This document shows, piece after piece, positions 17,917 to 55,308 of a DNA stretch of 61,524 nt. Positions within the stretch are counted from its first letter, which is position 1. Each line of letters starts with the position of its first letter. The DNA comes from Candidatus Parcubacteria bacterium. Lineage in GTDB: Bacteria > Patescibacteriota > Saccharimonadia > Saccharimonadales > 2-12-FULL-41-12. The stretch spans positions 1-61,524 of the forward strand of contig JAHWKM010000004.1 of assembly GCA_019347895.1 (NCBI GenBank), given 5' to 3'. The notes beneath the pieces are model-generated. The model was not told where the DNA came from. It saw nothing but the letters and a program-made list of their open reading frames with translations, and made no database searches. The position numbers and the translations under genes were made by a program.

Positions 17917-18083
17917 GAAGCCTCCGCACTTGAGTGTCCAATGTATTTTCTCGATGAGCAACGGAGTGAGCTGTACAGGACGTACTGCTCGCGAGTAGCG
18001 CAGTCGAAAAATACATTGGGTGCCAAGAGTGCCTTGCAAAGTCTGGCTTTGCCAGGCTTGGAAAGGCACGGTGCGCAGGTTTC
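17917..18083 (+). repeat. Family B ~170-bp structured element, copy 1
   Basis: CGCACTTGAG...GTAC-loop-GTAC...CCAAGAG...CGGTGCG; 58-aa ORF 17911-18087 overlaps the next ATG. Confidence 0.85.
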
Positions 18084-18269
18084 ATGACTCCGTTTTTCAT
18101 AGCTTTTATTATGGCGGCCGGCGTGACGGCTTGGGTATATGACAAAACCCAGCAGCGCACAGGCAACAATACTTCTTCTTCCGCCACTTTAGCGGCTGCT
18201 GCCGGCGTAATAGTATTCATAATCACTTTAACCATCCTTAGCCTAATTGACGATTATCTAGGCAATTAA
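18084..18269 (+). CDS. Small two-TM membrane protein
   Basis: 61 aa, WVY.K..RTG.N motif between TM helices. Confidence 0.7.
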   Translation: MTPFFIAFIMAAGVTAWVYDKTQQRTGNNTSSSATLAAAAGVIVFIITLTILSLIDDYLGN

Positions 18270-18319
18270 CTCTAAGACAATTAAATCCATCTCTCCTTCG
18301 ATTAATCATAAAAAATAAT

Positions 18320-18347
18320 CAGACTAGCGTACTAGTACGCTAGTCTG
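18320..18347. promoter_or_regulatory. Perfect 28-bp palindrome (operator candidate)
   Basis: CAGACTAGCGTACT|AGTACGCTAGTCTG upstream of an XRE-HAD fusion gene. Confidence 0.5.
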
Positions 18348-18455
18348 TCCGGCCTTCGGTGTTTTTAACTGATTTGTCTAGCCGGTTTAGGCTAATATTT
18401 TTGCTAATTTTCGGGTGCAACTGGTATTATATGGCCAGATAAGGTGGGTAAATAA

Positions 18456-19298
18456 ATGGATGAAAGAGAACTGGCTGCAAAAATTGGTGATGCCCGGCGC
18501 AGCTCAAGTCTAACGCAGCAGCAGCTTTGCCAAAAATCCGGCTTGAGCTACTCTACGCTAGCCAAAATTGAGCGCGGCGCTATCAAGTCCCCGTCGGTCT
18601 TTACCATTCAGCAGATTGCAGAGGCACTGGGAACATCCCTAGACGCTCTTTTAGGTATTGACACCGTTTCAGCTTCAAAACGGCCTAAAAAACGCTCTAA
18701 AAGCGGTGTGGAATTCGTGTACTTTGACATTAACGGCTGTTTAGTCCGGTTTTTTCACCGCGCCTTTGCCGCCGCCGCCCAGGCCACCGGGGCTTCGCCC
18801 GATGTGGTGGAAACGACTTTTTGGCACTACAACGATGCGGTTTGCCGCGGCGAGCTGCCAATGGAAGAGTTTAACGCTATCCTTGCCCGCCAATTTAATG
18901 TAAAAGGTTTCGACTGGATGCCGTATTATATGGCGGCTGTCGACCCGATAAAAGAAACGGCCGAGCTATTGGATTGGGCGCACGAACATTACCGGATCGG
19001 GCTGCTGAGCAATATCATGCCTGGATTTATCGCCGCAATGATTGAAAGCGGAATTTTGCCTGACATAAAATATGACCAAATCATTGATTCCTCAGATGTA
19101 AAAGCTATCAAACCAGAGCCGGAAATCTACAATCTTGCCGCGGAAAAAACCGGCTTGGACCACAAATCCATCATGCTGATAGACGATTCCCGGGCCAATC
19201 TAATGGCCGCCGGTAAACTGGGCTGGCACGTCCTCTGGTTCGACGATTATGATCCTGTTGAATCAGTCAAACGTATCAAAGCCGCCCTGGAATTCTGA
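18456..19298 (+). CDS. XRE-family HTH fused to HAD-like hydrolase
   Basis: LTQQQLC..SGLSYSTLAKIERG HTH; FDINGCL, LSN, KPEPEIY, IDDS motifs. Confidence 0.88.
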   Translation: MDERELAAKIGDARRSSSLTQQQLCQKSGLSYSTLAKIERGAIKSPSVFTIQQIAEALGTSLDALLGIDTVSASKRPKKRSKSGVEFVYFDINGCLVRFFHRAFAAAAQATGASPDVVETTFWHYNDAVCRGELPMEEFNAILARQFNVKGFDWMPYYMAAVDPIKETAELLDWAHEHYRIGLLSNIMPGFIAAMIESGILPDIKYDQIIDSSDVKAIKPEPEIYNLAAEKTGLDHKSIMLIDDSRANLMAAGKLGWHVLWFDDYDPVESVKRIKAALEF

Positions 19299-19315
19299 TT
19301 TAAAAAGAACTTGAT

Positions 19316-20530
19316 TTATAGTTTTTCTACAAATTCTTGGTATGACATGCCTATTTCCTTAAGGACTTTTTTTGTCCCCTTAGGATCTTTAATAAGGCCT
19401 CTACCTAGTGCTGTAGACATGCCTGTTCCCGGGTTATAAATAATTGGATGTTTACCTCCATTTCTCACAATACAACCTAATTGCTCAAATGCGGAAATAG
19501 CTTGGCTTACGGTAAGCCCAGAGGGTATGTCAGCTCTATCTCCGGACTGTTTAGAAGCAGCCTCTTGAGCTTCTCCTAAACCTTTTGGAGGTTTATCTAT
19601 GGTTTTACTTTGCTCGGAACGTCTTGGCTTCTTTCCGTTTTTATCTACCCTGCCACTAGATTGTCCCTTTGCTTCCTCTAAAAGCCCGGCAAGTTCATCA
19701 TTTAGATCCTCTAAAGCCTCTTCTTCCCAGGGCCGATATTGGCGAGACAGCCGTTTCTTGGCTTCCTGCGGCAGTTTATCAATATGTCTTGACGTTACCA
19801 TTTGTCCGAGCTGTTCGGGGTCGCGCAGTGCCGCCAGAGCATTTACTAAATCAATAAGCGCCTCCCGCAAATCTTCTTCGCTGCCATTATCTACTACAAC
19901 ATCGGGTGGTTGCCTTTCAATACCAAATTTTTTAATAGCCCAGCTGGCCATTCTTTTTATAGGACCGTCTTCTATAGGATCGCTTGAAGTTTCTGAAGGT
20001 GGGGGTAATGGTGAATTTAATTCAGTAACAATTTGAGCAGAGGCCTTTGCTTGCTCGCGGAGACCTTTTTTGATGTCTCCCAATGTGCTTCTCAGCTTAT
20101 TTTCGCTGACTAATTGAAGATCGTCCGGTTCATGTCCGCGGATTTTTTCTAAAAAGGTACTTTTGGATTTATTAACAATTTCCCCGTGTCTCTCTTGATA
20201 TTGTGCGCGTTTTTCAGCGTCCATTGCCGGATGTGAGCTTTGATTTGGAGCTTTAGGTACTTCGCCGGGGTATCGCTGTTCAATATCCGACGCCAGTTCA
20301 TCTCTAATTACCGGAAAAATTTTTTCAGTATTTTCAGCAAGTTTTTCCCTGGCATTATCAATGCATTGGGCGTTTGCTGCTTCTTCAATCGTGCTAAGTT
20401 CGGATGCCGCACTAAGGAGGTCTACTGCGGTGAGTTCCGAAAGCGGCGCAACTCCCTCTTCCCTTTGATGTTGAGGTGTTGGGGCGGCCTCAAACCTACT
20501 TTCAGCCGGAAAATCTAATGCTGGCATCAT
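19316..20530 (-). CDS. Orphan helical protein with C-terminal HicA-like domain
   Basis: C-terminus AISAFEQLGCIVRNGGKHPIIYNP...TKKVLKEIGMSYQEF resembles HicA. Confidence 0.6.
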   Translation of the reverse strand: MMPALDFPAESRFEAAPTPQHQREEGVAPLSELTAVDLLSAASELSTIEEAANAQCIDNAREKLAENTEKIFPVIRDELASDIEQRYPGEVPKAPNQSSHPAMDAEKRAQYQERHGEIVNKSKSTFLEKIRGHEPDDLQLVSENKLRSTLGDIKKGLREQAKASAQIVTELNSPLPPPSETSSDPIEDGPIKRMASWAIKKFGIERQPPDVVVDNGSEEDLREALIDLVNALAALRDPEQLGQMVTSRHIDKLPQEAKKRLSRQYRPWEEEALEDLNDELAGLLEEAKGQSSGRVDKNGKKPRRSEQSKTIDKPPKGLGEAQEAASKQSGDRADIPSGLTVSQAISAFEQLGCIVRNGGKHPIIYNPGTGMSTALGRGLIKDPKGTKKVLKEIGMSYQEFVEKL

Positions 20531-20594
20531 ATAGTTTAATTATAGCATAAAACATATTAAAATTCAAGCCTGATAAAATTATTGAAGCGATGAT

Positions 20595-23234
20595 TTAGTC
20601 ACTTTTTTGACTAGCAATGTATGCCGTGAGAGTTTTTAGTTCGGACCTCTTATCTCTTAACTGAGCCTCGGATTCATTAACGAGATTCGAAGGCGCCTTT
20701 TTGGCGTAGCCGGGGTTGCCCAAGCGAACTTCCAGATTTTTTATTGATTCTTTTAGTTCTTTAGAGCGTTCTTGTAGAGACTTCAAGTATTTTTTAGCTT
20801 CCTCATCGTCCACCTCAAACCAAACTGGCTCGGTAGTTTGGGTTAGCTTTAGTCCCCTTCCATCCTCAGTTTTAACTAATGATTCCAACTTGGCCAGTGA
20901 TTTTATTAGAGGTTCGTTGTCGGCCACAATTTGCGAGTTTTTGAACAGCGCGTTTCCGTGCTGTTTGACCAGAGCGGTTTTGATCTGGCGTATTTCACGG
21001 ACTATTTTTTGCACTTGTTCAAATTGTTTGGCTTTTTTAGCGTCAAATTTAACTGGCTTAGGCCACTGGGCGGTGATTAACAATGTGTCATCCTCGGCAT
21101 GAAGGGTTTGCCAAATAGTCTCTGTTATAAACGGCGCGAATGGGTGAGCTAGCTTCAAAATAGTTTCGAGAACATGGTCTAAGACAGTCGAATTTAACTC
21201 GGTTTTGCTGGCTTCGATGTACCAGTCGGCCACATCGTCCCAAATTAAGTGATACATACGATAATAAGCGCCGCTGAAATTAAAATTACTGATTGCCTCG
21301 TTGATTGATTCGCCAGCCTCGTTTAATTTGGCTATTACCCAATGGTCGGCTGCTGTTTTTGGCTCCGGTTGCGAGCCAACAGCTAGTTCAGAGGTGCTGG
21401 CCTCGATGTAGCGGGCGATGTTCCAAAGCTTGTTGCAGAAGTTCCGGTTGGCTTCGGCCTTAGCGGTTCCCCAATTTTGATCGTTGCCCGGCGACACGCC
21501 CATGATAAGTGCTAGCCGCAGGGAGTCAGCGCCGTATTTTGGTATGACACTCAGCGGATCGACAATGGATTCCGGTCGGCTTTTGCTCATTTTCTTGCCG
21601 TCTTCGGCCCGGATCATACCGTGCAAATAAACCTTTTTAAACGGTACTTCCCCGGTGACGTAAGTCGTAGCCAAAATCATTCGAGCCACCCAAAAAAATA
21701 AAATATCCCAGCCGGTTTCCATAACATCTGTCGGGTGGTATTTTTGAAAGTCCCGGCTGTCCTTTAGAATTGCTTCAAGCGAAAGCGAGCCGTCAACAGC
21801 AAGCTTCGGGTCAACCAGAGTACTCCATGTCCAAAGCGCCGATGAAAACCAAGTATCCAGGGTATCGGGATCCTGCTGCCATTCATGAAAACCTTCGCTT
21901 TGATCAGTTGGGGGCGCTATTCCCACGTAAGTTTCTTCCCTATTGTCAGTGTCGATTCTGTACCAAACCGGGATTCTGTGGCCCCACCATATTTGGCGGG
22001 AAATGCACCAGTCGCGCAGGCTGTCGATCCAGTGGAAATAAGTTTTTTCAAACCGTTTTGGCACAATCTCAATGTCGCCTTCCCTTATCACAGATTGCAT
22101 AACTTCTTTCAGGCTGTGTTTTTTGCCTTTCCAGTCCACTATTTTTTTATTGACGTCAACGAACCACTGCAGTTTGATTTGCGGCTCGATAACACCTTTG
22201 CCTCGGTCATTTAGGGCGATGTTATGCACATATTCTTCATCGATACTGACCAGCAAACCCTTCTTGTTTAATTTTTCAACAATTTTTGGCCGGGCTTCGG
22301 CGATGTTTATGCCCTCAAACTCGCCGGCAATCGGCAAAAGCTTGCCGTGGAAATCAATAATTTGCTCTTTATCCAGTCCATGTCGCTGGGCAATTTCAAA
22401 ATCTACATGGCTATGAGCCGGCGTGATTGTCATAACACCGGTACCGAACTTTGGATCTACCGCCTCGTCCTTGATAACAGTGGCTGTAATAGGCCCGTTA
22501 ATCCACTCCACATCAATAGTGTCGCCGTGTTTGTATTGAGCGTAGCGTTCATCATCAGGATGCATAATCACATATTTGTCGCCGAATTTGGTTTCCGGCC
22601 GGGCGGTGCCGATCTCAAACGGGCCGTATTTTAATGTATAGAATTTGGATTTTTCTTCTTGGTAGACTAGTTCATCGTCTGAGACGGTTGTTTGCAGGTT
22701 CGGATCCCAGTTGACGATGCGGTAACCTCTGTAAATTAATCCATCCTCATACATTTTAATGAACGTTTCATTAACGCAGCGGTTCAAAGAGTCATCCAAG
22801 GTGTATCGTGTCCGTGACCAGTCGGCACTGGCGCCAATCGCCCGCATTTGTTCCAGCATGGTATTGCGGCTATTGCCGACAAATTCCTTGGTTCTTTTTA
22901 AAAATTCGTCTCGCCCAATCTGGTGCTTGTCGGTTCCTTCGTCAGACAGCTGTTTTTCAATAAGTGCGTTTACCGCTAGGGCCGCGTGGTCCGTGCCGGG
23001 CAGCCAAAGTGCGTCCTTACCTTTTAGCCTGGCGTGGCGGATCATTATGTCTTGCAGGGTTAAAAATAGCGCGTGGCCGATACTGAGCGTACCGGTCTCA
23101 TTCGGCGGCGGCATACTGATGACAAACGGCTCTTTGCCGCTTTTAGGATTAGCATAAAATGCCCCGCTGCGCTCCCACAGCTTATAAATATCTTTCTCGT
23201 ACTGCTCAGCCTCGTAAGTTTTAGGAAGTCTCAT
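20595..23234 (-). CDS. valS: Valyl-tRNA synthetase
   Basis: PPPNETG..SIGH, DWCISRQIWWGH, KMSKS, C-terminal coiled coil; ATG at 23234 after TATACT. Confidence 0.97.
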   Translation of the reverse strand: MRLPKTYEAEQYEKDIYKLWERSGAFYANPKSGKEPFVISMPPPNETGTLSIGHALFLTLQDIMIRHARLKGKDALWLPGTDHAALAVNALIEKQLSDEGTDKHQIGRDEFLKRTKEFVGNSRNTMLEQMRAIGASADWSRTRYTLDDSLNRCVNETFIKMYEDGLIYRGYRIVNWDPNLQTTVSDDELVYQEEKSKFYTLKYGPFEIGTARPETKFGDKYVIMHPDDERYAQYKHGDTIDVEWINGPITATVIKDEAVDPKFGTGVMTITPAHSHVDFEIAQRHGLDKEQIIDFHGKLLPIAGEFEGINIAEARPKIVEKLNKKGLLVSIDEEYVHNIALNDRGKGVIEPQIKLQWFVDVNKKIVDWKGKKHSLKEVMQSVIREGDIEIVPKRFEKTYFHWIDSLRDWCISRQIWWGHRIPVWYRIDTDNREETYVGIAPPTDQSEGFHEWQQDPDTLDTWFSSALWTWSTLVDPKLAVDGSLSLEAILKDSRDFQKYHPTDVMETGWDILFFWVARMILATTYVTGEVPFKKVYLHGMIRAEDGKKMSKSRPESIVDPLSVIPKYGADSLRLALIMGVSPGNDQNWGTAKAEANRNFCNKLWNIARYIEASTSELAVGSQPEPKTAADHWVIAKLNEAGESINEAISNFNFSGAYYRMYHLIWDDVADWYIEASKTELNSTVLDHVLETILKLAHPFAPFITETIWQTLHAEDDTLLITAQWPKPVKFDAKKAKQFEQVQKIVREIRQIKTALVKQHGNALFKNSQIVADNEPLIKSLAKLESLVKTEDGRGLKLTQTTEPVWFEVDDEEAKKYLKSLQERSKELKESIKNLEVRLGNPGYAKKAPSNLVNESEAQLRDKRSELKTLTAYIASQKSD

Positions 23235-23280
23235 GAATGATAAGTATACCACCTCTGTTCTTTGTGCCAAAGAAGGAAGG

Positions 23281-23862
23281 CATATTCTTCTGATCAAGGA
23301 ACCAATTTCGGCGGTACTTCGTACCTACCCCGAGTTCCTTTTTTGTCTGAAAAAAGGAACCGAAAAAGCAGACAGGCGGCTTCCAGTTCTTGAGGAGTTC
23401 ATTGTCAAGAAGCACAATGCTCGGAAAACTCAGCTTGCCCTTTATTAATTTTTAGCCTCGGCAAGCTTCAGACACTTCCTCGCGAGAAAATGTGCTTTTG
23501 ACATTCACTCATCAGGAACTTCCAGAGCCTGGATAAAAGCAGATGAGAAAAACTTGTTTTTCTCAGGTAATAGATAATGGAAATTCGACTTTTGGGTTTG
23601 GGCATAGAGAGACGTCCTGATTGGCGAATGTCAAAAGCACAATTATTCGCTGCAGAAGCGAAGCGAGGCAGTGTTTAAGCCCCGCCATCCTATGGATTTA
23701 TTAAGGCGGGGTGAGTTTACCGAGCATTGTGCTCTTTGACAATGAGACAGTCAAGATGACTCGACGCCCAATCGGTTTGGAATACCTTTGCCGAAACAAA
23801 GGTATTGATTTGCTTCTTTATCTAAAGAAGTATGGGCTTGGTTCTTCAGCAGAGAACATATG
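23281..23862. repeat. Family C large nested-palindrome element (long form)
   Basis: Nested inverted repeats; GTTCCTTTTTTGTCTGAAAAAA..AACCGAAAAAGCAGACAG shared with ~59800. Confidence 0.8.
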
Positions 23863-25130: not shown

Positions 25131-25153
25131 CTGTTTTACTGTATCATTGTTGT

Positions 25154-37830: not shown

Positions 37831-39534
37831 ATGAATAAGGGGTTAGCTAGTCAGATTAATTTGATTTGCAGGCAGTTATTTGAGGTGGAGGCAGAGGTAG
37901 TTTTGAGCCGGCCGGATGAGCAGTTTGGGGATTTTTCCTGTAATGTAGCTATGCAGCTGGCTGGGAAATTGAGTAAAAATCCGAGGGAAATCGCTGAGTC
38001 TATTGCCGCTGAGCTGAACAAAAAAGATGTTTCGGCTGAAATTGCTGGTCCCGGTTTCATCAACATTCGTTTGAGTGATCAAGCGGTTTTTGAAGCTGCG
38101 CAGGAGGCTACGAAACTTGATCAGCCGCTAAAAAAACAAGCGGTGGTGGCAGAATATTCCGATCCGAATCCGTTCAAGGTTTTACACGCCGGCCATTTGT
38201 ATACAAGCTTTATCGGTGATGCCATTTCGAATATTTTGGAAACCGCCGGCGCCAAAGTGCATAGGGTAAATTACGGCGGAGATGTGGGTCTTCATGTAGC
38301 CAAAACTATGTGGGGCATATTGAATCATGCCGGATCAGGCCAATTAAACGAACAGCAGGCAGTTAGGAATATAAATAGCATATCGGGAAACACACTGGCT
38401 GAGAGAGCCGCAATAATGGCTATTCGGTATATCGAGGGCAACAGGGCCTACGAAGAAAATCCAGAAGCCAAAGCCGATATTGCTAAAATTAATGCCAGGG
38501 TTTACGAGCTTCATGATAAAAATGATAGAGATAGTGACTTCGCACAAGTTTATTGGACTTGCAGAGATTGGAGCTATGATTATTTTAAAGAGTTCTATAA
38601 AGAAATTGGCGTAAAAGAATTTGAGAAATTTTACCCTGAAAGCCAAACCGTCTCTTTGGGAGTTTCCACGGTCAAAGCGCAAACCAAAAAAGGTGTTTAC
38701 GAGGAAAGTAATGGAGCTATTGTTTTTAAAGGTGAAAAATATGGGCTTCATACCCGGGTTTTTATAAATTCACAAGGACTTCCGACCTACGAAACAAAGG
38801 AAGTAGGCTTGATAATGACAAAATGGAACGAATATTCCTTCGACAAGTCAGTGATTATAACCGGGAACGACATTGTGGAATATATGAAGGTGGTTCAAAA
38901 AAGTATTGAACAGTTTGCTCCCGAACTGGTTAAAAAATCTGTCCATCTTACGCATGGGCAGGTAAAACTGGAAGGCGGCAAGAAGATGAGCAGCCGGAAG
39001 GGTAACGTTTTGTATGCTAATGATGTCATTGAAGCCGCCCAAAAAGCCAGTGAAGCTAACGGTCGCGGCGATAAGGATATAGTCATTGGGTCAGTGCGCT
39101 ATTCCTTTCTAAAAAACAGGGTCGGCGGAGATATCATATATGATCCGAAAGAGTCAGTTGCTCAGGAAGGTAACAGCGGACCGTATTTACAATATGCCTT
39201 GGTTCGAGCCAAAAGCATATTGCACAAATTGAAGGCTACAAATTCTAAATCTCAAATTCCTGACTCCAAATCCCTAGATAAATTTGAGCGGAGCTTGGCG
39301 CGGCAATTAAGTCTTTATCCGGAGGCATTTGATGCGGCACTAAAAGATTATTCACCGCACCATATTTGTTCGTATCTTTACGAATTGGCCCAAATTTTTA
39401 ACCGGTTTTATGAAAATAGCCGGGTAGCCGGCGATCCGCGAGAGAGCTTGCGCACAAATTTAGTTCAATCTTACGAGCGGGTCTTATCCCGTGGCCTTGA
39501 TTTACTCGGGATGCCGACCCCGGAGAAAATGTAA
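37831..39534 (+). CDS. argS: Arginyl-tRNA synthetase
   Basis: FGDFS.N, GPGFINI, PNPFK.LHAGH, KMSSRKG, GPYLQYA. Confidence 0.97.
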   Translation: MNKGLASQINLICRQLFEVEAEVVLSRPDEQFGDFSCNVAMQLAGKLSKNPREIAESIAAELNKKDVSAEIAGPGFINIRLSDQAVFEAAQEATKLDQPLKKQAVVAEYSDPNPFKVLHAGHLYTSFIGDAISNILETAGAKVHRVNYGGDVGLHVAKTMWGILNHAGSGQLNEQQAVRNINSISGNTLAERAAIMAIRYIEGNRAYEENPEAKADIAKINARVYELHDKNDRDSDFAQVYWTCRDWSYDYFKEFYKEIGVKEFEKFYPESQTVSLGVSTVKAQTKKGVYEESNGAIVFKGEKYGLHTRVFINSQGLPTYETKEVGLIMTKWNEYSFDKSVIITGNDIVEYMKVVQKSIEQFAPELVKKSVHLTHGQVKLEGGKKMSSRKGNVLYANDVIEAAQKASEANGRGDKDIVIGSVRYSFLKNRVGGDIIYDPKESVAQEGNSGPYLQYALVRAKSILHKLKATNSKSQIPDSKSLDKFERSLARQLSLYPEAFDAALKDYSPHHICSYLYELAQIFNRFYENSRVAGDPRESLRTNLVQSYERVLSRGLDLLGMPTPEKM

Positions 39535-39539: not shown

Positions 39540-40349
39540 ATGGCTATTTTACTTAGACATCCGCATTTGAGGTTCCGGCTAGGCGCCAGCGAAGCACGGA
39601 GTGAGCCGTACAAGTTGTATGGTGAGCGAGCACTGGAACTAGCAACGCCGCCGGAGTCCAAAAGTATTGGCAGGGTTAAGGGCTCTGCCCGTGAGCAGGA
39701 CGATACGGTGCGGATGTCTAAAGCGGTGGTTTTTGACTTCGATGGGACGCTGGCTGATACGGAAGGGTTTTTAAGACAAATCTACGGTGATATTGCCCGT
39801 GAAAAAGGTTGGGAACCGTTAAGCAAACGGACCTACCGCCGGCTCTTTACCGCCAGTATTTGGGAGGCGGCCCGCTGGGCGAGGTTTCGTCCGTGGCGGC
39901 TGCATCATTTAGTCAGTGAAAGCCGCACCCGCCTGCAGGCCCGCGCTAATGAAATTAAAATCTTCGACGGACTTAAGAATGTGGTCAATGAGCTTCACAA
40001 ATCCGGGTACGATATTTATATGCTCAGTCGCAACTGGCAGAGCACAGTCCAAATAGTAGTAGATAAGAACGGCCTGGGTGATAAAGTAGTGGTTCTTGAG
40101 AAGCCGGGTTTTTTTACGAAACATAAAAGCGTGAAAAAACTTTTAGTCCAGAAAAAATATGAAAAAAAGCAAACCTGGATGGTCGGGGACGAAGTGCGCG
40201 ATCTCTACGCGGCTAAACGGGCGGGCGTACCTTTTATCGCCGTTGTTTGGGGGTTTCAGGACAAAAAAACCCTTAAGGCTTTTAAGCCGGCGGCATTGGC
40301 CCAAAAGCCTCAAGAAATTCTTGATATAATCTTAAAGAGCAAGGATTAA
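39540..40349 (+). CDS. HAD family phosphatase with in-frame element insertion
   Basis: FDFDGTL, VGDEVRD, WGF; 55-codon insert after residue 5. Confidence 0.88.
   Translation: MAILLRHPHLRFRLGASEARSEPYKLYGERALELATPPESKSIGRVKGSAREQDDTVRMSKAVVFDFDGTLADTEGFLRQIYGDIAREKGWEPLSKRTYRRLFTASIWEAARWARFRPWRLHHLVSESRTRLQARANEIKIFDGLKNVVNELHKSGYDIYMLSRNWQSTVQIVVDKNGLGDKVVVLEKPGFFTKHKSVKKLLVQKKYEKKQTWMVGDEVRDLYAAKRAGVPFIAVVWGFQDKKTLKAFKPAALAQKPQEILDIILKSKD
39554..39720 (+). mobile_element. Family B element, copy 2 (TA-flanked, in frame)
   Basis: TA-GACATCCGCA...TGCGGATGTC-TA; excision restores MAILLKAVVFDFDGT. Confidence 0.85.
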
Positions 40350-46602: not shown

Positions 46603-47343
46603 TTATAAACCGAAAAACTCTTCCATGGTTTGGTCGGTTTCATGGAGCTTTGCGGCCAGTTTTTCGCCTACATATCTAAAATGCCACGGTTCATACTGGT
46701 ATCCGGTGATGTTTTTCTTACCTTGCTTGTAGCGCAGAGTGAAGCCGTATTTGTGGGCGTTTTGGGCCAGCCATTTTCCCTCAGGGGTTTCGCCAAAACA
46801 GATCTCCAGATAACATTTTCTATCGGCTCTTGATATATCAAAGGCCAGTCCGGTTTGGTGTTCGCTGGTTCCCGGGCGGGCGCTGTACTTGTCGGCCGCA
46901 GCTTGTCCGTCGCGGGCAACGTAGCCGTTATAATAAACTGCCTGCAAATCAGCCGATCTGTAACCGCTGGCAAATAGCAGACGGTAGCCGGCTGTTTGGG
47001 CGTCTGAAAACATAGTTTCTATCCTTTCATCCACGCCGCTTTTTATTTTTTGTTCCTCGGCGCTGTCGGTAGGATCGCGTCTGACTTCCGGTGTTGCTAA
47101 TTCCGTAGGCACATAATCGGTCGGGATTGGACGCTGCTTGTTGACTATTACCCATAAGCTAGCCGGATCAGTCAGCGAATACTGGATTTTGTCGAATTCA
47201 TCTGGATTGTTATTTTCTTCAGCTTGTTCATTCTGTTTTTGGCGGTCGGAATCCGGAGTATTAGTCCTCTTTCCACCTATAAAAAAATAGGCCGAGCCGC
47301 TGGCTATAAGCAAGATTAAAAGAATTACTAAAAGCTTTTTCAC
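46603..47343 (-). CDS. D-alanyl-D-alanine carboxypeptidase (M15B/VanY-like)
   Basis: SGYRS, PGTSEHQTGLAFD, EPWHFRYVG. Confidence 0.93.
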   Translation of the reverse strand: MKKLLVILLILLIASGSAYFFIGGKRTNTPDSDRQKQNEQAEENNNPDEFDKIQYSLTDPASLWVIVNKQRPIPTDYVPTELATPEVRRDPTDSAEEQKIKSGVDERIETMFSDAQTAGYRLLFASGYRSADLQAVYYNGYVARDGQAAADKYSARPGTSEHQTGLAFDISRADRKCYLEICFGETPEGKWLAQNAHKYGFTLRYKQGKKNITGYQYEPWHFRYVGEKLAAKLHETDQTMEEFFGL

Positions 47344-47378
47344 CCTTAAAATAATAACACTGTATAATATTGAAAATG

Positions 47379-47551
47379 ATCAGAAATTTCACACTTGAGT
47401 GCAAAACGGAATTTATTGGAGAGCAGCGGAGTAAAACGTACAAGTGGTACGTTGCACGAGCAGCGCAGCCAAAATTTGCGTTATGTGCCAAGAGCGGCTT
47501 GCAAGAGCAAACTGGTTTTGGGCTGGAAAGGCGCGGTGCGTAAGTTCTGAT
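47379..47551 (+). repeat. Family B element, copy 3
   Basis: CACACTTGAG...CCAAGAG...CGGTGCG; 55-aa ORF 47376-47543 ends 6 nt before the orn ATG. Confidence 0.85.
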
Positions 47552-48092
47552 GAAGATTGATAAGCATTTAGTGCCAACCAAACTTCTTTGGATTGATTTG
47601 GAGATGACAGGACTTGATTCGGAAAAAGACGTTATTTTGGAAGTGGCCGCCGAAGTAACTGACTTTGATTTTAAAACCTTGGCGTCTTACGAAGCGATAA
47701 TAAAGCACAAAAACCGGTCATTGAAAAAAATGAATGACTGGTCCAAGCTGCAGCACAAAGCCAGCGGTTTAACGGAGCGCATAAAAAAAGAGGGCAGAGA
47801 CGAGCAAGAGGTAGTTCATGAACTGGTCGGTTTTATCAGGGCGGAGTTTGGTAACGAGCCGGCAATTCTAGCCGGCAACTCTATCCATAACGACCGCAAG
47901 TTTATCACCCGCTGGTGGCCAGAAGTAGAAGACCGGCTGCATTACCGCATGCTGGACGTAACCAGCTTTAAAATTTTAATGCAGGCTAAATACGGAGTGA
48001 GTTTTGCCAAAAAAGACGTCCACCGTGCCTTCGACGACATCCAAGCCTCCATCGCCGAACTACAGTTTTACCTTGAAAAATTGAAGCGCTAG
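47550..48092 (+). CDS. orn: Oligoribonuclease
   Basis: WIDLEMTGL, AGNS, HYR.LDV.S, HRA.DDI..SI.EL. Confidence 0.95.
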   Translation: MKIDKHLVPTKLLWIDLEMTGLDSEKDVILEVAAEVTDFDFKTLASYEAIIKHKNRSLKKMNDWSKLQHKASGLTERIKKEGRDEQEVVHELVGFIRAEFGNEPAILAGNSIHNDRKFITRWWPEVEDRLHYRMLDVTSFKILMQAKYGVSFAKKDVHRAFDDIQASIAELQFYLEKLKR

Positions 48093-48166: not shown

Positions 48167-49417
48167 ATGTCTATAGAGGACGGGCCATCTAGAGAAAACC
48201 CTGCATTTATCGCTCAACCAGACGGAAGCTTTGTTGGAATAAACGAGCAGCGCCGTAAAAACCATGAAGCCGAAATGGATGTTTCTGTACTGCAGGCAGG
48301 AGATGTTCTTGCCGCACGCTTTGATAATGAAGATTCACCCTCGGGTTTTGTATACGAAGTTGAGGAAGCTGTATGGCATGATCTTGGTATTTCGAACTAC
48401 AGTAAGCCAGGACGCAGTCTTAGTGGAAGAATTAACTCCGCGTCTTTGCCCTCAGAGATTAACGGTACGGAGAAAGTAATATTTACAGGCAGCACGTACG
48501 GAGGTTCAATAATCAGTCCAGGACTAATTGCTACTGGAATGTACCCAGAATTTTTCTTAAAAGGGAAAGGTAGATTAACATTTCCGCCAATTAACTACTT
48601 TGTAGTTTTTCGTGCAGATGAACGAGGCTCTCTGCAAGAGATAGAGCCGCAGCAACTAGTTGCCGAAACTTCCGCAAAAAATGAAAAACACACTAAGCGT
48701 GTTGCCGAAATGGATCAAGTGATTGAAGCTTTTAGATTCGACCGCAACCTACGTAACCTAGGCGGCCAAACATATTCAGATGAACGCTACGAAGCTGTTT
48801 TCGATAGTCGAGGCGCGGTTGGTTTAGCAATTCTAGACAAGAAAACAAAGGTATGGATGAAATACCAATACGATGAAGGGCGGGCTTTGCAGATCGGCTT
48901 CGCAAAACTATCAGACATCAAAGAAGCTTATGGGCTTGATGGTAGATTTTCTAGCACAGTTGAACCTATTTATAGAGCAGGTGTGGCTATATCTACACAT
49001 ACTACGTCGCCACGTTATGGGATTGACGTGGTTAATTATAAGATGAGTAAAAAAGAAGCTGCAGACATCGATTTTGCCGGCAAAGATGCATTTCCTCCAA
49101 GTCCTAACATACGTGTTTGGCCTGACGGTTCCCATGATATTGACGATGACAGCTACAAAACTTCAGACGAAAAAAGAATCGAAGATAATAAGAAAATTGA
49201 GGAAGTCTTAGAGTTGCATACGGCTATGGATAGTACAGGTAGAGTTCTGATTATAGACGGCGAGCCTATCGAACTATTTGATCCCTCAACGGAAGCTGAG
49301 AAAATAATAAAACAACTTTCAATAGATACTGAACAGCAATCCCAATGGTCTGAACGGAAGATATATACTTCTGGATTTGTTACAAGAGCTATTAATAAAA
49401 TTACTAAGAAAACCTAA
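48167..49417 (+). CDS. Orphan hypothetical protein (416 aa)
   Basis: Own TTGACA-17-TAATAT promoter; flanked by duplicated orn 3' ends. Confidence 0.7.
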   Translation: MSIEDGPSRENPAFIAQPDGSFVGINEQRRKNHEAEMDVSVLQAGDVLAARFDNEDSPSGFVYEVEEAVWHDLGISNYSKPGRSLSGRINSASLPSEINGTEKVIFTGSTYGGSIISPGLIATGMYPEFFLKGKGRLTFPPINYFVVFRADERGSLQEIEPQQLVAETSAKNEKHTKRVAEMDQVIEAFRFDRNLRNLGGQTYSDERYEAVFDSRGAVGLAILDKKTKVWMKYQYDEGRALQIGFAKLSDIKEAYGLDGRFSSTVEPIYRAGVAISTHTTSPRYGIDVVNYKMSKKEAADIDFAGKDAFPPSPNIRVWPDGSHDIDDDSYKTSDEKRIEDNKKIEEVLELHTAMDSTGRVLIIDGEPIELFDPSTEAEKIIKQLSIDTEQQSQWSERKIYTSGFVTRAINKITKKT

Positions 49418-49450
49418 ATAAAAGCAGCATAGTCTCATCCAGTTCTTTAC

Positions 49451-49580
49451 AAAATCCTTATGCAGGGCTAAATACGGTGTTAATTTTGCCAAAAAGGACG
49501 TTCACCGCGCCTTCGACGACATCCAAGCTTCCATCGCCGAACTCCAGTTTTATATCGAAAAATTAAAAGATACTATTTAG
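49451..49580 (+). pseudogene. Duplicated 3' end of orn
   Basis: Encodes AKYGVNFAKKDVHRAFDDIQASIAELQFYIEKLK; matches ~47970-48092 with mostly synonymous changes and a 1-nt insertion. Confidence 0.9.
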
Positions 49581-49611
49581 CCCAAGCCTTAAAATTTTTT
49601 AATACAACCTT

Positions 49612-49938
49612 TTATAACTTTCTGGCCTTTATTACACTTGCTATGGCTCGGCCTGACAGTACACCTGGAGGTACTTTTTCAGTAGGTTTAGCAGGAACGC
49701 CACTAAACATTACATTTACCAGACTGTCGGCTGCCTCTCCGATAATATTCTGATCCTTGAGTTTACTATAGTAAGCCTCTGGACTCTCGGGTCTACCCAT
49801 TAATTCTTTATCAGGAACAAAATAATGTTGATTTCCTACTATATCTTCATCAGCAAGATGACTATCTGGCGGCAACACAACGCTTTCTCTTCTAGGATTT
49901 TGAGGCTCAATTTTGCCTAGTTCTGCTGAAAATTCCAT
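49612..49938 (-). CDS. Orphan hypothetical protein
   Basis: TTGACA-17-TAATAT promoter and AAGGA upstream. Confidence 0.6.
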   Translation of the reverse strand: MEFSAELGKIEPQNPRRESVVLPPDSHLADEDIVGNQHYFVPDKELMGRPESPEAYYSKLKDQNIIGEAADSLVNVMFSGVPAKPTEKVPPGVLSGRAIASVIKARKL

Positions 49939-50050
49939 TTTTTATTTTTTCCTTAACTTTTACATATTAGCACAAGGTTGCGCTTATGTCAAATATGAAT
50001 TTATGTTTCCTCTGTTTTAGATTTACGTTAGTAAATATATAATAACACGA

Positions 50051-50473
50051 ATGCTGTACCTGTTTTTAGCGATTTTACTTTTTACTACGTTGAGCTTATT
50101 AAGCGCAGCTGCTTCAAGACGAACAAATAGCAATTTAGTGACTCTGATTGTAAATACATTCTCAGTTTTAATGCCGCTCATTATTCTGGCTCCAGCGTTC
50201 ATAAAAAAATCTTTAACCATTGATAAGCCAGCGCTGATAATGACTATAATAGCTGGACTCTGTGTCGGGCTTTTCGCCATGACGGTCAACAAAAGCTTTA
50301 CGCTTAATAAAGTTGGCATAGTGATTCCGGTGGTTTTCGGGGGAACAATAATGCTCACGGCTGTTTTGAGTTACTTTATCTTTAAGGAAACGCTCAAAGG
50401 CTTTGAGCTGGCCGGGCTGCTGCTTATTCTGGCCGGCCTTGGCTTTATAATTTACGCCCGTTCTGTCGCATGA
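50051..50473 (+). CDS. Single-repeat EamA/DMT membrane protein
   Basis: 5 TM, FIFKE.L motif. Confidence 0.8.
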   Translation: MLYLFLAILLFTTLSLLSAAASRRTNSNLVTLIVNTFSVLMPLIILAPAFIKKSLTIDKPALIMTIIAGLCVGLFAMTVNKSFTLNKVGIVIPVVFGGTIMLTAVLSYFIFKETLKGFELAGLLLILAGLGFIIYARSVA

Positions 50474-50820
50474 ATGAAATGAACCACAAAACAGTGGAAC
50501 AATACGTTTTAAGTATGCCGAACGCTAAGCTGGACTATCCTTTTGGCGAGGGAGTGGCGGTGTATAAGGTTAAAGAAAAAATGTTCGCTTTAATCTCTGA
50601 AAATAAAGAACCTCTAAATATCAGCCTGAAATGCGACCCGAAGCTAGCTGAAGTATTACGAGAAAAATATGAGACTGTAATGCCCGGATACCACTTAAAT
50701 AAAAAGCACTGGAACACCATAGTTTTAACCGGCCAGCTGGACTGGGAAGAAATAAAAGGACTGATTCGCCACAGCCATAACCTTGTAACAAAAACCGATG
50801 CCGAAACCCCGCAACTATAA
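50470..50820 (+). CDS. MmcQ/YjbR family protein
   Basis: YPFG, KMFA, LKCDP, PGYHLNKKHWNT. Confidence 0.93.
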   Translation: MNEMNHKTVEQYVLSMPNAKLDYPFGEGVAVYKVKEKMFALISENKEPLNISLKCDPKLAEVLREKYETVMPGYHLNKKHWNTIVLTGQLDWEEIKGLIRHSHNLVTKTDAETPQL

Positions 50821-50855
50821 AGCCTTTGCAAAATATTTTTAAGTGTTGGACTTGT

Positions 50856-51854
50856 TTACTGGGTAGATTCGGGTTTGTCTAGCAATAAATCTATCTGGCC
50901 GAAGGCAGTTTCTATAATTTGTTTTTCGCTGGCATTGGAGCTTTCATAAGCCGCCTGCAGCTGCAGGCGGTAGTTATTTAGTTGCTGATCAAGCAGCGCC
51001 TGGTAGGTTTCGTCAAATTTCCCGCTTTGTTCACCCTGGACTAATAAGGCATCACTTTCGGCGTTTTGGCTGGCTTCAAGTTTTTTCTCCACCTTTTTAA
51101 GTCCCCGGCCGGCCAAAGCGCCAATCAGTTCCAACTGAGACGAACGCATAGTTAACTGGATGTTATTAACCTTAAAAAGTAGGTCGCGGTCGCCAATTTT
51201 CTCCTCGGCAGATTCAGCCACCCGGATAATTTCATGTTGGGTTTGGGCAATTTCCAGCAGCCTGTCCCGGTGGTCGCTGCCAGCGCTGTTTAAAAATGAA
51301 AACACGGTAGAAACCAATATGATTAAAACAATTAATGCCCCTCCCGCGAACATGGCGCGCTTTAAAGTACTGGCGTTGCCAAGGTCAAGCAAAGGCTTTT
51401 TAGGCGGCTTTTGAGGATTCATTATAAATTCATAATCGCTGTCCGGGGGCGAACCGCTCGATCCTTGAGTGTTGTAATCTGGCGGGGCTTGCGCTGATAC
51501 GGTACTGCGTAAAGACCGTCGGGAGCTATTATTATTCGGCAGTACCACCTGGGTTTGCACCGGCCTGTAAGCCTGAGCGGAAGGAGCGCTGGTTCTAAGC
51601 GGTGCAGCCGGAGCTGAACTGGCAGCTCCATAAATAACGTTTTGATGCATGTAAGGCTTAACATATTGCTGCATATGGGCCGGCAAGTTTTTTTGCATTT
51701 GAGCAGTCATCTCATTTTCGATGCGGGCCGGCATACGGGCGCCGCTGTTTTGATATTTTTTAAGGTGAGCCGGCATAGTCCGGTCCATATGGGCCGCCAT
51801 GGATTTTTGTACGGCCGGCGGGATGTAGGCGTTTCTGTTTTCACTGGACGACAT
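50856..51854 (-). CDS. Single-TM hypothetical protein with N-terminal (M/L)PAH repeats
   Basis: YEFIMNP motif, TM, helical extracellular domain. Confidence 0.7.
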   Translation of the reverse strand: MSSSENRNAYIPPAVQKSMAAHMDRTMPAHLKKYQNSGARMPARIENEMTAQMQKNLPAHMQQYVKPYMHQNVIYGAASSAPAAPLRTSAPSAQAYRPVQTQVVLPNNNSSRRSLRSTVSAQAPPDYNTQGSSGSPPDSDYEFIMNPQKPPKKPLLDLGNASTLKRAMFAGGALIVLIILVSTVFSFLNSAGSDHRDRLLEIAQTQHEIIRVAESAEEKIGDRDLLFKVNNIQLTMRSSQLELIGALAGRGLKKVEKKLEASQNAESDALLVQGEQSGKFDETYQALLDQQLNNYRLQLQAAYESSNASEKQIIETAFGQIDLLLDKPESTQ

Positions 51855-51937
51855 AGCTTAATTAAACCATAAGCAACTCTTCCACGGGAAGCCCTCTATA
51901 CTTGATACTTACTGCTTACTGCTAGATACTAATTTCT

Positions 51938-53701
51938 ATGGATGCGGTCAGCGAGGTCAAAGCCCGGCTTAGTATAGAAGACGTTATTAGCGAATACGTC
52001 CGCTTGAAGCGAGCCGGCAAAAATTTTAAAGGTTTGAGCCCGTTTTCAAATGAAAAAACGCCAAGTTTTGTGGTTAGTCCCGAAAAACAGATTTGGCACG
52101 ATTTTAGTTCGGGGCGCGGCGGCGATATTTTTACGTTCATACAAGAAGTAGAAGGAGTGGATTTTAAAGGCGCCCTGGAACTTTTATCCCGCAAGGCCGG
52201 AGTTGATCTGGAAGATTATCGCAAGGGTAGCGATAATAGATCCAGGTTCGACAAAGAGCGTCTGTACAAGGCGCTGGATATGTCGGCCAAATTCTATCAA
52301 AGGCAGCTAAAGGATAGTAATCAGGCCTTGGAGTACATTATAAAAAAACGCGGCTTTGCCAAGCAGACGGTTTTGGATTTCCAGCTGGGATATAGCTCCG
52401 AGAACCAGCGGGGGCTGACTGACTATTTATTGCAAAAAGGTTTTTCCGAGCAAGAGCTGAAACTTTGCGGGCTGGTTAGTACGGCCAGGGGGTTGAATGA
52501 TATGTTCCGCGGCCGGCTGATGATACCGCTGCACGACCAGTTTGGCAAAGTCATCGGTTTTACGGCTCGGATTTTAAACGAGCAATTATCCGGCCCAAAA
52601 TATATTAATACACCCTCCACGCCGCTGTACGATAAGAGCCGGCATATATATGGACTGCACCTGGCTAAGCAAGGTATTCGCACCAAGGACTATTCGGTAA
52701 TTGTAGAAGGCAATCTAGATGTAATCGCTTCGCATCAGGCCGGACAAAATCAGATTGTAGCCACGGCCGGCACTGCCTTAACCGAATATCAAATGAAAGC
52801 TCTGTCCCGTTTGTCGCCCAATGTGCGCCTGAGTTTTGACCAGGATAAAGCCGGCCTTGAGGCCGCCGAGAGAGCCATACCGATCGCTAGCAAAGCGGGC
52901 GTAAACCTGAGCATCATTACTCTTTCATCGGGCAAAGATCCGGATGAGCTTATCAAAAAGGACCCCAAACTTTGGACCGAAGCCATCGACAACGCCGATT
53001 ACGCCGTCGACTGGTTAATAAACCGCTACAAAGAGAAGCTTAATATCTCCACTGCTCAAGGCAAGCGTGAATTCAGCGACGTGATGATAAATTTGATAAA
53101 AACACTTGAAGACCCTGTCGAGCAGGATCATTATGTGAATGTGGTCTCGCAGGAAGCGGCCGTTGACCCTTCGGCCATCCGTCAGAAATTATTTACGGAC
53201 GGCAAATCCATCGACGAAAAACTAAAGCAAATAAGCAGGCCCGCCAATACATTGGACCAAAACAGCCAGCACCAAATAAACAGGATCGACAAATTCCTAA
53301 GTTTGAGCTTAATGCAGCCCGATATAAGACATTATTTGGATTTACTAAGTCCAGATATGCTAATAACCGACGAGCAAGTTAAATTGCTTAAATTTCTAAA
53401 GGAAAATCCGGAATTTGACCCCAGCGCGGCCGATAAAAAGCCTGAGGATGCGACCCAGGCGGAAGACTATGTTAAAATACTAGTGTTACTATTTGAGCAA
53501 TTATACGCCTCAGTTGATGCGCAAGAACTTCACTACGAAGCTCAGCGCCTGAGAGCCGAGACAATCAAATATTTTGTAGAACAACAAAAGGCCAATTTAT
53601 TTGCGCTGCAACATCAAAGTGATGAAGCCGAGCAAACCAAGATTCTCTCTAGTGTCAGGGAACTTGATAAACTACTAAGCCAAACGAAAAGAATTGATTA
53701 A
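51938..53701 (+). CDS. dnaG: DNA primase
   Basis: EKTPSF, FRGRLMIP, PKYINT, VEG..D, FDQD.AG, KDPDE. Confidence 0.97.
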   Translation: MDAVSEVKARLSIEDVISEYVRLKRAGKNFKGLSPFSNEKTPSFVVSPEKQIWHDFSSGRGGDIFTFIQEVEGVDFKGALELLSRKAGVDLEDYRKGSDNRSRFDKERLYKALDMSAKFYQRQLKDSNQALEYIIKKRGFAKQTVLDFQLGYSSENQRGLTDYLLQKGFSEQELKLCGLVSTARGLNDMFRGRLMIPLHDQFGKVIGFTARILNEQLSGPKYINTPSTPLYDKSRHIYGLHLAKQGIRTKDYSVIVEGNLDVIASHQAGQNQIVATAGTALTEYQMKALSRLSPNVRLSFDQDKAGLEAAERAIPIASKAGVNLSIITLSSGKDPDELIKKDPKLWTEAIDNADYAVDWLINRYKEKLNISTAQGKREFSDVMINLIKTLEDPVEQDHYVNVVSQEAAVDPSAIRQKLFTDGKSIDEKLKQISRPANTLDQNSQHQINRIDKFLSLSLMQPDIRHYLDLLSPDMLITDEQVKLLKFLKENPEFDPSAADKKPEDATQAEDYVKILVLLFEQLYASVDAQELHYEAQRLRAETIKYFVEQQKANLFALQHQSDEAEQTKILSSVRELDKLLSQTKRID

Positions 53702-53716
53702 TGAGATGGAGTTATT

Positions 53717-53805
53717 ATGAGTCCCGTTAGAACTTTCAAAAAACCTAAATTTAAGATAGAATATACCACCAAACCTAATTTTACAGGAGTTCTAACGGGA
53801 TGAGC
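53717..53805 (+). repeat. Family A start-codon hairpin element, copy 3
   Basis: ATGAGT-CCCGTTAGAAC...GTTCTAACGGG-ATGAGC; 28-aa ORF 53717-53803 stops on the rpoD ATGA. Confidence 0.85.
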
Positions 53806-54900
53806 GAAGATCAGCAAAAGGTAACGCCAGAGGAAGCCAAAAAAGATCTTTTGGCGCTGGCTAAAAAAGACGGCAAAATCGAACAGGAAGCCATATTTGC
53901 CCTTATTCCTGAAACACCGGAGAATGCCGAGGTTTTGGACAGCCTGTATACCGAATTAGCTGATTCCAGGATCGAAGTTACCGGCAATTCGGTTAATGGG
54001 GTGGCCGACGATTGGGTGGCCGAAGACGAAGAAGAGTTGGTATTGGACGACAAAATCTATATGGACGATATTGCCGATGATTCAGTCCGGCTTTATTTGC
54101 GTGAAATCGGCAAAATCCCGCTTTTGAAACCTGACGAGGAACTGGCGCTAGCCCAAAGAGTCGTAGCCGGCGAGAAAAAAGCTAAAGACCAAATGGCCGA
54201 AGCTAACATGCGGTTGGTTGTTTCTATCGCCAAGCGCTACGTTGGCCGTGGATTAGACCTGCTGGATTTAATCCAAGAGGGAAACACCGGTTTGCTGCGG
54301 GCCGTTGAGAAATTTGATCCGGACAAAGGTTTCAAATTCTCCACATACGCCACCTGGTGGATTCGCCAGGCGATTACCCGGGCCATTGCCGACCAAGCCA
54401 GAGTTATCCGCATTCCCGTGCATATGTTTGAGACCATTAACAAGCTGCTTCGAACCCAGCGCCGATTGACTCAAGAACTTAACCGTGAGCCTACCAACGA
54501 AGAAATCGCCGAAGCCATGGAAATGGAAGTCGAGAAGGTGGAGCATATCATGAAGATCAAACAGGATATTCATTCCTTGGACGCTTCCGTGCGTGACGAT
54601 GAAGAAGACAGTGTACTGGGCGATTTCATCGAGGACGAGGATACTATTACACCTGAGGAATCAGCTACCGGCAGCTTGCTGAAAAGCCACGTCAAAGACA
54701 TGCTTTCCGGCCTAACCGAGCGAGAACAAAAAATTTTGAAACTGCGTTTTGGCTTGGAAGACGGCAAAAGCCACACGCTGGAAGAAGTCGGCCAGGAATT
54801 TATGGTAACCCGCGAACGAATAAGGCAGATAGAGGCTAAGGCTTTAGCTAAACTGCGCAAGCATAAAGATGCCCGCAAGCTCCACGATTACATCAAGTAA
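53800..54900 (+). CDS. rpoD: Primary sigma factor
   Basis: [41 protein letters not shown]. Confidence 0.98.
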
Positions 54901-55068
54901 GACCTGTGCCGCGCCAGCCTGCTGATGAGCGAAGCTCATCACTCCGCTGGCGCTCTTGGACTCATATACGATTTTATTCTGCGATGCTCAGTAGCAGTAC
55001 TTTTTGTACAGCTACTTCCACTTCTCAAATAGAAATCACACCTGAGCCTCAAGCACAGGCCTTACTTG
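54894..55068 (-). repeat. Family B element, copy 5 (antisense, at the rpoD stop)
   Basis: Minus strand TGTGCTTGAG...AGCTGTAC-AAAAA-GTACTGCT...CCAAGAG...CGGCACA. Confidence 0.8.
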
Positions 55069-55143
55069 CAGCTTGTGCCCGTTCGTTTTTTTTACTAACT
55101 TTGAAATGTATACTGTAAAGAATGAAAACAGTTAGGCTGGTTA

Positions 55144-55308
55144 TGACCTTCACACTTGCGTGCACAGTGCATTTTCTCAACGAGCAACGGACTAAGCTGT
55201 ACAGGCGGTACTGCTTAGGAGTAGCACAGCTGAAAAATGTGCTGGGTGCCAAGAACGACTTGCAAAGTTGGACTTTGTTCAGCTTGGAAAGTCGTGGTGT
55301 GGAGGTCA
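55144..55308 (+). repeat. Family B element, copy 4
   Basis: Homologous to 17917-18083; 63-aa ORF 55122-55313 stops on the ATGA at 55310. Confidence 0.85.

Follow-up and report, generated by a model that had tools for sequence, protein, structure and literature searches.

Five copies of a folded repeat in the window

The DNA analysed here is a stretch of 61,524 nt from Candidatus Parcubacteria bacterium (GCA_019347895.1, contig JAHWKM010000004.1, positions 1-61,524), referred to below as the window. It carries five copies (c1 to c5) of a repeated element with a large branched fold. Three of them (c1, c3 and c4) head genes, c2 follows argS, and c5 lies antisense at the stop codon of rpoD. The original prediction had described five divergent copies of approximately 170 bp. 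A covariance model built from these five recovered all of them with scores of 134-178 bits each, refined their coordinates to elements of approximately 177 nt and gave no further match in the window at E<=10. The mean column identity of the aligned copies is 66-68%, and the blocks TTG, GA, GGA, GTACA, GTA, GAG and CCAA are invariant across all five. The motifs TTGAG, CCAAGA and GTAC, which had been noted as near-invariant, were confirmed by the alignments.

Copy c1 (17914-18090, + strand, 178 bits) shows the parts of the element most clearly. In the predicted dot-bracket fold, the closing helix P1 is formed by 17917-17930 with 18070-18083, and it encloses a long arm (17931-18025), the junction bases AGA (18026-18028) and a short arm (18029-18069). 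A TATAAT box on the same strand (17899-17904) lies 6 nt 5' of ATG 17911, which is predicted from the sequence and a -10 scan to be a leaderless start. The frame that opens there (17911-18087, + strand) runs through the element for 58 codons to TGA 18085-18087, and this stop codon overlaps, as ATGA, the ATG at 18084 of a 61-aa membrane-protein open reading frame (ORF; 18084-18269). The hexamer CATGAC is present at both ends of the copy (17910-17915 and 18083-18088).

Copy c2 (39551-39727, + strand, 134 bits) begins 16 nt past the argS stop codon (39532-39534) and is read in frame, so that a HAD hydrolase ORF (39540-40349) carries it as an extension at its N terminus. The Pfam domain HAD_2 begins at residue 63 of this ORF, the alignment with HAD homologues begins at 39714, and ATG 39714 and ATG 39540 share one frame. 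Copy c3 (47379-47555, + strand, 158.9 bits) is located between a divergent VanY gene and a gene for an RNase T-type exonuclease. It is preceded on the + strand by a promoter-like site, TTCACC-18-TATAAT (47339-47368; 10/12 matches in the promoter scan), of which the TATAAT (47363-47368) lies 7 nt before ATG 47376. The frame from this ATG (47376-47543, + strand) spans 55 codons to TAA 47541-47543, and the exonuclease ATG at 47550 is 6 nt on.

The remaining two copies share the spacer between rpoD and a gene for a P-loop kinase (Pfam AAA_17/AAA_18). Copy c5 (54890-55068, - strand, 164.9 bits) is antisense to rpoD, and its P1 (54894-54910 with 55053-55068) takes in the last two codons and the stop codon (TAA 54898-54900) of that gene. 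It is crossed in antisense, on the + strand, which is the rpoD strand, by a frame of 70 codons (54906-55118) that starts with GTG 5 nt past the rpoD stop and ends 3 nt before ATG 55122. Copy c4 (55140-55316, + strand, 166.4 bits) lies directly 5' of the kinase gene. Its frame (55122-55313, + strand) runs from ATG 55122 for 63 codons to TGA 55311-55313, which overlaps the kinase ATG at 55310; a TATACT (55109-55114) is present 7 nt upstream of ATG 55122, and a GGAGG at 55301-55305. Together, the antisense frame of c5 and the frame of c4 tile the entire rpoD-kinase spacer. The two copies stand head to head across 71 nt (window 54890-55316), as do two copies across a 102-nt spacer in a genome of the same genus, G001 (L077:1501-1959), an arrangement that recalls inverted pairs of repetitive extragenic palindromic (REP) sequences.

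Fold, covariation and distribution

RNAalifold assigned 62 base pairs to the five window copies, 43 of them with compensatory change. They build up P1, a closing helix of 15 pairs, together with a long arm that has interruptions and carries GUAC-5 nt-GUAC at its tip, and a second, short arm; these parts meet in a three-way junction. Copy c1 folded singly adopts the same structure (-87.1 kcal/mol, z = -7.7), and the outer helix, the GTAC-loop-GTAC apical stem and the three-way junction of the original prediction were thus recovered in both ways. The complement strand of c1 folds only to -69.1 kcal/mol, 18 kcal/mol worse.

The fold was then evaluated in an alignment of 61 copies (31 of the window genome and 30 from 29 other genomes). 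In this alignment, which was fitted to the model and therefore favours structure, 89.5% of the cells are paired, compared with 62.0% in shuffled controls (0/500 shuffles reach the observed value) and 35.5-44.2% with slid partners; the five-copy RNAalifold and the single fold of c1 are independent of that fit. Changes on both sides were found at 61/62 pairs, and the covariation score is 0.703 against 0.215 in the control. The covariation of stems, whose absence had been named as a refutation, is therefore present over almost the whole structure. The stems are variable and the bases of the junction and internal loops are constant, including two GA/GNA loops in near two-fold symmetry. G-U combinations occupy 357 cells and A-C combinations 78; because the former outnumber the latter, the fold is carried by one strand. 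A short form of approximately 133 nt, seemingly without the second arm and the three-way junction, was also observed, both in the window genome (G000 C2:8171-8300, C4:31011-31144, C14:1713-1845, C24:43511-43643 and C10:3880-4011) and in a metagenome locus (L116:3569-3701).

The window genome (G000; 907 kb in 27 contigs, 92.6% complete) contains 36 matches to the element, which account for approximately 0.7% of its DNA. The element was found in 33 of 41 genomes of the same order, the window genome included, with 1-35 matches each. In a draw across the phylum, for which stricter filters were used, 7 of 150 other Patescibacteria genomes gave a match, three of the seven being within this order. 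In a motif scan of species genomes, 12 of the 80 loci listed passed the model, and all 12 are titled Candidatus Saccharibacteria or Saccharimonadales. The motif used, ACTTGAG..GAGNANYGGA..GTAC, also hits bacterial 23S rRNA, within its last 500 nt and across many phyla (L179, L181 and L203). Three of four tested scan loci that failed the model are the 3' end of 23S rRNA, and such loci were treated as chance matches. Carriage by phages was rejected on a search of limited sensitivity: in viral contigs, 0/19 pattern hits passed the covariance model, the pattern itself recovering just 16 of the 61 known copies.

A match to a known Rfam family had also been named as grounds for refutation. A search of the whole window at the gathering score found nothing except four tRNAs (6790-6879, 9468-9541, 13112-13199 and 14544-14630), and a search at E<=10 around c1 and around c4/c5 gave only hits of 11-17 bits, which is chance level. 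A literature search found no description of such a repeat in Saccharibacteria.

Sites at gene edges and within genes

The 3' end of P1 abuts the start of a protein gene on the same strand in 30/61 copies (29 by script, and in addition c1, whose downstream 61-aa ORF falls under the script's limit of 80 aa), the 5' end of a tRNA gene in 3/61 and the stop codon of a convergent gene in 18/61. Nine of these 18 sit antisense between co-directional genes. Where a gene follows, its start codon forms the last 3 nt of P1 or touches P1; the stop codons are found inside P1 or only a few bases away from it. On its 5' side the element is set less tightly, with 0-79 nt to the neighbour. With respect to the genes beside them, copies are found in either orientation. 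Those that precede tRNA genes end 0-6 nt before the 5' ends of tRNA-Gln, tRNA-Asp and tRNA-Gly (G000 C26:26071-26247, which is L007; L041; L056). In L007 a TATAAT box lies just 5' of the copy, so that processing by RNase P would free the element as a discrete RNA.

The genes directly downstream are functionally unrelated, as had been noted for the window. Genome-wide, HAD hydrolases are among them, as are an exonuclease, a kinase, DapB, Der, MnmA, GuaA, PurD, a 6PGD-like dehydrogenase, an M16 peptidase and UDP-glucose dehydrogenase, in addition to the tRNAs. In the window itself, the HAD hydrolases, the exonuclease and the nucleotide-type kinase would suit a metabolite riboswitch for nucleotide-related genes. 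This candidate was dropped when the genome-wide contexts, with unrelated genes, tRNAs and copies in both orientations, had been examined; together with the assumption of a small-protein gene, which is taken up with the reading frames below, it is hardly credible. The original prediction of a mobile element selected for its structure, rather than a riboswitch, is supported. The 36 genomic matches, the two orientations, the copies before tRNA genes and those in frame in enzymes speak against a riboswitch, and individual sites have been gained and lost.

Gain and loss are evident among close relatives. At the c4/c5 site downstream of rpoD, no copy is present in 5/5 relatives, and none is present at the c3 site in 2/2 relatives whose loci reach it (G001 and G003); the exonuclease gene of G001 begins TATAAT-N10-ATG, without the element. 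In G001, 17 copies were examined. Three share a junction with a copy of the window genome, and at two of these three junctions the copies are of opposite orientation and unrelated in sequence. At least four G001 copies correspond to empty junctions of 24-128 nt in the window genome. In one such empty/filled pair, the native spacer and ATGAA stand before the element and ATGAAG after it. The idea that P1 is a pre-existing host hairpin that received the core of the element in its loop was rejected, since two empty sites have no such hairpin. Of 80 metagenome rpoD loci, which do not all extend beyond the stop codon, two (L117 and L116) have a further copy in antisense that directly abuts this stop; because one metagenome copy belongs to another subfamily, this site has been hit at least twice. 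In c5 and its metagenome counterpart, the last Lys codon of rpoD is AAG or AAA, and its pairing partner in the distal arm is CTT or TTT.

Once in place, copies keep their fold. Copies that share site and orientation between genomes rank 1-8 among 60 for each other and differ by 3-19 double changes.

Inside enzymes, the window genome has three copies, all in frame and in sense, each of which adds 56-74 residues at a place where solved homologues have 5-7. In GlmS, residues 60-124 stand where the E. coli enzyme has 7 residues. The copy (G000 C11:15034-15213; L011:1501-1680) adds approximately 65 residues to the glutaminase domain and has a counterpart in G012 (L047:1501-1680); a second copy is located directly before the glmS start (C11:15418-15597). 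In methylpurine-DNA glycosylase, residues 120-175 replace 6 residues of human AAG, and the copy (C5:581-758; L014) splits the Pfam domain of the enzyme. In UDP-glucose dehydrogenase, residues 190-263 correspond to 5 residues of the solved homologue, and the copy (C11:6924-7100; L009:734-910) sits between the N-terminal and central domains. The three copies retain 55/62, 54/61 and 45/59 pairs, respectively, and all of them, like c2, are in frame and free of stop codons.

These copies bear on a further explanation, also raised by the original prediction, in which the element is a new RNA, self-cleaving or self-splicing, and is lost from transcripts by its own action. Covarying stems combined with near-invariant junction and loop bases are the typical profile of such an RNA, and the many copies in varied contexts without an Rfam match would also agree with it. 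However, c2 and the three intragenic copies are in frame and stop-free, and open frames are favoured in copies that a gene follows (see below), neither of which would matter if the RNA were removed. We therefore regard a catalytic RNA of this kind as very improbable.

Translation, mobility and relation to known elements

We consider it somewhat probable that the repeat is a dispersed insertion element of approximately 177 nt, with a fold on one strand, which settles flush at gene starts, gene stops and the 5' ends of tRNA genes, and in frame within genes, and which is tolerated by means of translational read-through and re-initiation. A start codon at the 5' edge of the element would admit ribosomes. 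In copies with a -10 box 6-9 nt upstream of it, a leaderless mRNA would begin with this codon, as a 5'-terminal AUG. The ribosomes would melt P1, which would otherwise bury the start codon of the gene, and would terminate at the conserved TAG or TAA in the 3' strand of P1 or at an ATGA overlap. They could then restart at the neighbouring gene, and the insertion would cost little. It is probably the element itself that requires the fold, in the form of single-stranded DNA or RNA, for its spread or persistence.

The reading frames are consistent with this proposal. When six copies of less than 165 nt were dropped, a sense frame was found to stay open for >=88% of the element in 25/29 copies before a gene and in 6/16 copies at convergent stops (nominal Fisher p = 0.0017). 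Overall, the sense frame is open in 35/55 copies, compared with 27.7% under a null of resampled alignment columns and pairs, and the excess of open frames is real in the sense direction only. The frame ends at the conserved TAG/TAA in the 3' strand of P1 (model position 163) or at an ATGA overlap; in traversable copies, its stop codon lies -15 to +2 nt from the end of P1 and 0-15 nt from the real gene start. An ATG stands exactly at -3..-1 in 10/61 copies; in eight of the ten, a -10-like box precedes it by 6-9 nt, which is the spacing of leaderless mRNA. A promoter of its own before every copy was considered and rejected, because the -10-like peak at -18..-11 belongs mainly to gene-heading copies and none is convincing at convergent stops. 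Antisense ORFs that bridge the element, as at c5, were likewise rejected as a general feature.

The original prediction had also claimed a conserved reading frame. This holds in part: many sense copies do leave a frame open, and their peptides can be aligned, yet neither a constraint on codon positions nor a protein family was found. The alignable peptides in several sense copies had suggested genes for a small protein of approximately 57 residues, the assumption that we have set beside the riboswitch. The three codon positions vary equally, however (entropy 1.22/1.20/1.18 bits), with no excess of variation at the third; a fully stop-free sense frame of any kind is present in only 15/61 copies; the peptides match no Pfam family; and in protein databases only four proteins match them, each in a cluster of 1-2 members. 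The small-protein gene was rejected on these grounds.

Several results weigh against the insertion element proposed above. The closest pair of copies inside the window genome is only about 75% identical, and recent copies were not found; the copies are old and diverged, yet the fold is retained. No match to rve, DDE_Tnp_1, IS110, resolvase, reverse transcriptase (RT) or TnpB is present in the window genome, which is 92.6% complete, and the outer 8-10 bp of P1 vary between copies, unlike the terminal repeats bound by transposases. Direct repeats containing a start codon flank c1 (CATGAC), c4 (ATGAA), c3 (ATGA) and L032. They are no proof of target duplication, because permuted flanks give as many (14.0 expected and 16 observed at >=4 nt, p = 0.25; range 0.25-0.30): ATG(A) at both ends is a family-wide property and not specific to a copy. 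Furthermore, the fold is kept in place after insertion by compensatory change, for which a purely selfish passenger has no need. The copies inside GlmS in two genera are each other's best relatives, with 71.5% identity and 10 double compensatory changes, and a syntenic pair in G014 and G008 is 86.7% identical, compared with approximately 71.6% for the flanking coding DNA. Copies whose folded strand is antisense to the gene they abut show an excess of G-U (12.5%) over A-C (1.4%) that is just as strong as in the others, and the proposal does not account for this strand specificity. As for translation, antisense openness (33/55) equals its null level (53.8%), a full antisense bridging ORF is present in just 2/9 antisense tandem copies of the window genome, the two-hexamer promoter scan passes 1/3 window copies (c3, but not c1 and c4), and the non-independence of related copies means that the p-values overstate the significance.

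Retention of the fold is one reason to think of a cis-acting RNA module that serves the host. According to this explanation, P1 hides the start codon and translation of a short, often leaderless, upstream frame frees the gene; the fold at the 5' terminus could also stabilise the mRNA, and a protein or ligand bound by the conserved junction and loop bases would bring dozens of genes under common control. The fold and the internal-loop bases (GA/GNA twice) are indeed kept across copies that are only about 50% identical, syntenic copies maintain the fold through 3-19 double changes with one pair more conserved than the flanking genes, gene-preceding copies have the start codon in or at P1, and in eight copies the ATG at the 5' edge follows a -10 box by 6-9 nt. 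On the other hand, orthologous genes of close relatives manage without the element, 18/61 copies lie at a convergent stop with 9/18 antisense between co-directional genes, three copies precede tRNA genes, where translation is irrelevant, some copies lie within coding regions, and the downstream genes are functionally unrelated. We regard such a module as possible, if unlikely. It is doubtful, too, that the element is a portable functional RNA whose fold is selected at each site, clamps the start or stop codon in P1 and places unrelated genes under one control, that is, a mobile regulatory leader specific to the ultra-small Saccharibacteria. Such common control could consist of leaderless upstream-frame translation, a protein on the symmetric GA-rich loops or a new catalytic activity. 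The reading as a functional RNA stays alive because the large fold is kept in place by compensatory change.

The only transposase-like genes found in the window genome are two of the Y1_Tnp family (Y1, similar to the REP-associated tyrosine transposase, RAYT, and to IS200). One (C20:46923-47147; L087:1306-1917, - strand) is a 203-aa ORF between an exonuclease III-like gene (EEP-type, judged by eye) and a HAD gene; the other (C23:57349-57591) has an internal TGA. REPs are hairpins of approximately 20-40 nt located beside their RAYT gene. In analogy to them, and to the related REPINs, the element might be a single-stranded-DNA element moved by the Y1 (HUH) transposase of the genome, which would recognise the strand-specific fold. 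In favour of this are the strand-specific fold itself, the head-to-head pairs c5/c4 and G001 L077, and the fact that Y1_Tnp, with two matches, is the sole transposase-like family found while six other mobility families were negative. However, Y1 was found in only 12/41 genomes, and its presence bears no relation to copy number: it is lacking in G039 (25 matches), G022 (17), G006 (13) and G034 (12), and G010 and G017 have Y1 without a match. With the covariance model at E<=10, no element was found within 1.5 kb of the 12 Y1 genes. The replication-strand bias expected of single-strand transposition of the Y1 type was not observed either (11 vs 21 copies relative to GC skew, p = 0.11), and the element, with its three-way junction, is five times the size of a REP. 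Y1/RAYT as the mover, for which neither co-occurrence nor adjacency was found, was therefore rejected, and a REP/REPIN-like nature of the element is improbable.

The insertion element favoured here resembles several known repeats. Mycobacterial interspersed repetitive units (MIRUs) are repeats of 40-100 bp in mycobacteria, and we know of no deeply covarying three-way-junction fold in them. In a review, they are said to 'insert themselves at start codons' with a coupled ORF at -4 nt (PMC12548453). The present element is likewise inserted at start codons in 30/61 copies, its internal frame, open in 25/29, ends at or overlaps the gene start, c1 and c4 end in an ATGA overlap, and the frames of the other copies stop <=15 nt before the end of P1. 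The constant co-orientation with flanking genes that would be expected of a MIRU-type repeat is not seen, since the element lies at a convergent stop in 18/61 copies, and it also occurs before tRNA genes and inside genes.

Rickettsia palindromic elements (RPEs) are described in one source as palindromic repeats of approximately 150 bp in a reduced genome, which lie in frame in unrelated housekeeping genes and are translated (PMC10969869). The original prediction had mentioned RPEs as an analogy only. The analogy is closer than was then thought, because in-frame intragenic copies exist, namely those in GlmS, methylpurine glycosylase and UDP-glucose dehydrogenase, with an N-terminal one in the HAD hydrolase. 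The differences, in a comparison by description, are that no codon-level constraint was seen in the present element, whereas RPEs are described as encoding a conserved peptide, that most of its copies are intergenic and flush with gene ends, and that it belongs to another phylum.

[quoted passage not shown] The present element is of a similar size class, occurs in both orientations and can be intragenic or carry a frame. It differs from classical MITEs in that its ends are complementary within each copy but the outer 8-10 bp of P1 are not conserved between copies, in that no target duplication is proven, and in that no match to a parent insertion sequence (IS) or DDE transposase (rve, DDE_Tnp_1, IS110) is present in the window genome. 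With REPs and REPINs it shares structured, strand-specific, intergenic repeats that are sometimes arranged as inverted pairs, and a genome whose only transposase-like genes are Y1_Tnp; it differs by its 177 nt with a three-way junction, by the absence of copies within 1.5 kb of 12 Y1 genes and by a copy number that Y1 presence does not track. The element resembles MIRUs where it lies at gene starts and RPEs where it lies inside genes, yet it is a member of neither, nor of any Rfam family. The large conserved fold that is kept in place by compensatory change is the trait that distinguishes it.

The genomes of Saccharibacteria are among the smallest and most tightly packed of bacterial genomes. 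The element is nonetheless wedged at the exact edges of essential genes and in three enzymes, and it illustrates one way in which packed genomes absorb insertions, by means of a start codon, an open frame and a stop right at the start of the next gene. It is also an unusually clear case of a nucleic-acid fold that is kept by compensatory change while being translated within GlmS, and any account of it must say what selects the fold. As for practical use, small ORFs called in error and over-long gene starts in metagenome-assembled genomes are flagged by the covariance model, and the element could serve as a marker of strain history. Genetic manipulation of Saccharibacteria has been reported (PMC10633639). 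If the fold acts as RNA, the element would represent a new large class of RNA in a phylum whose regulation is almost unknown.

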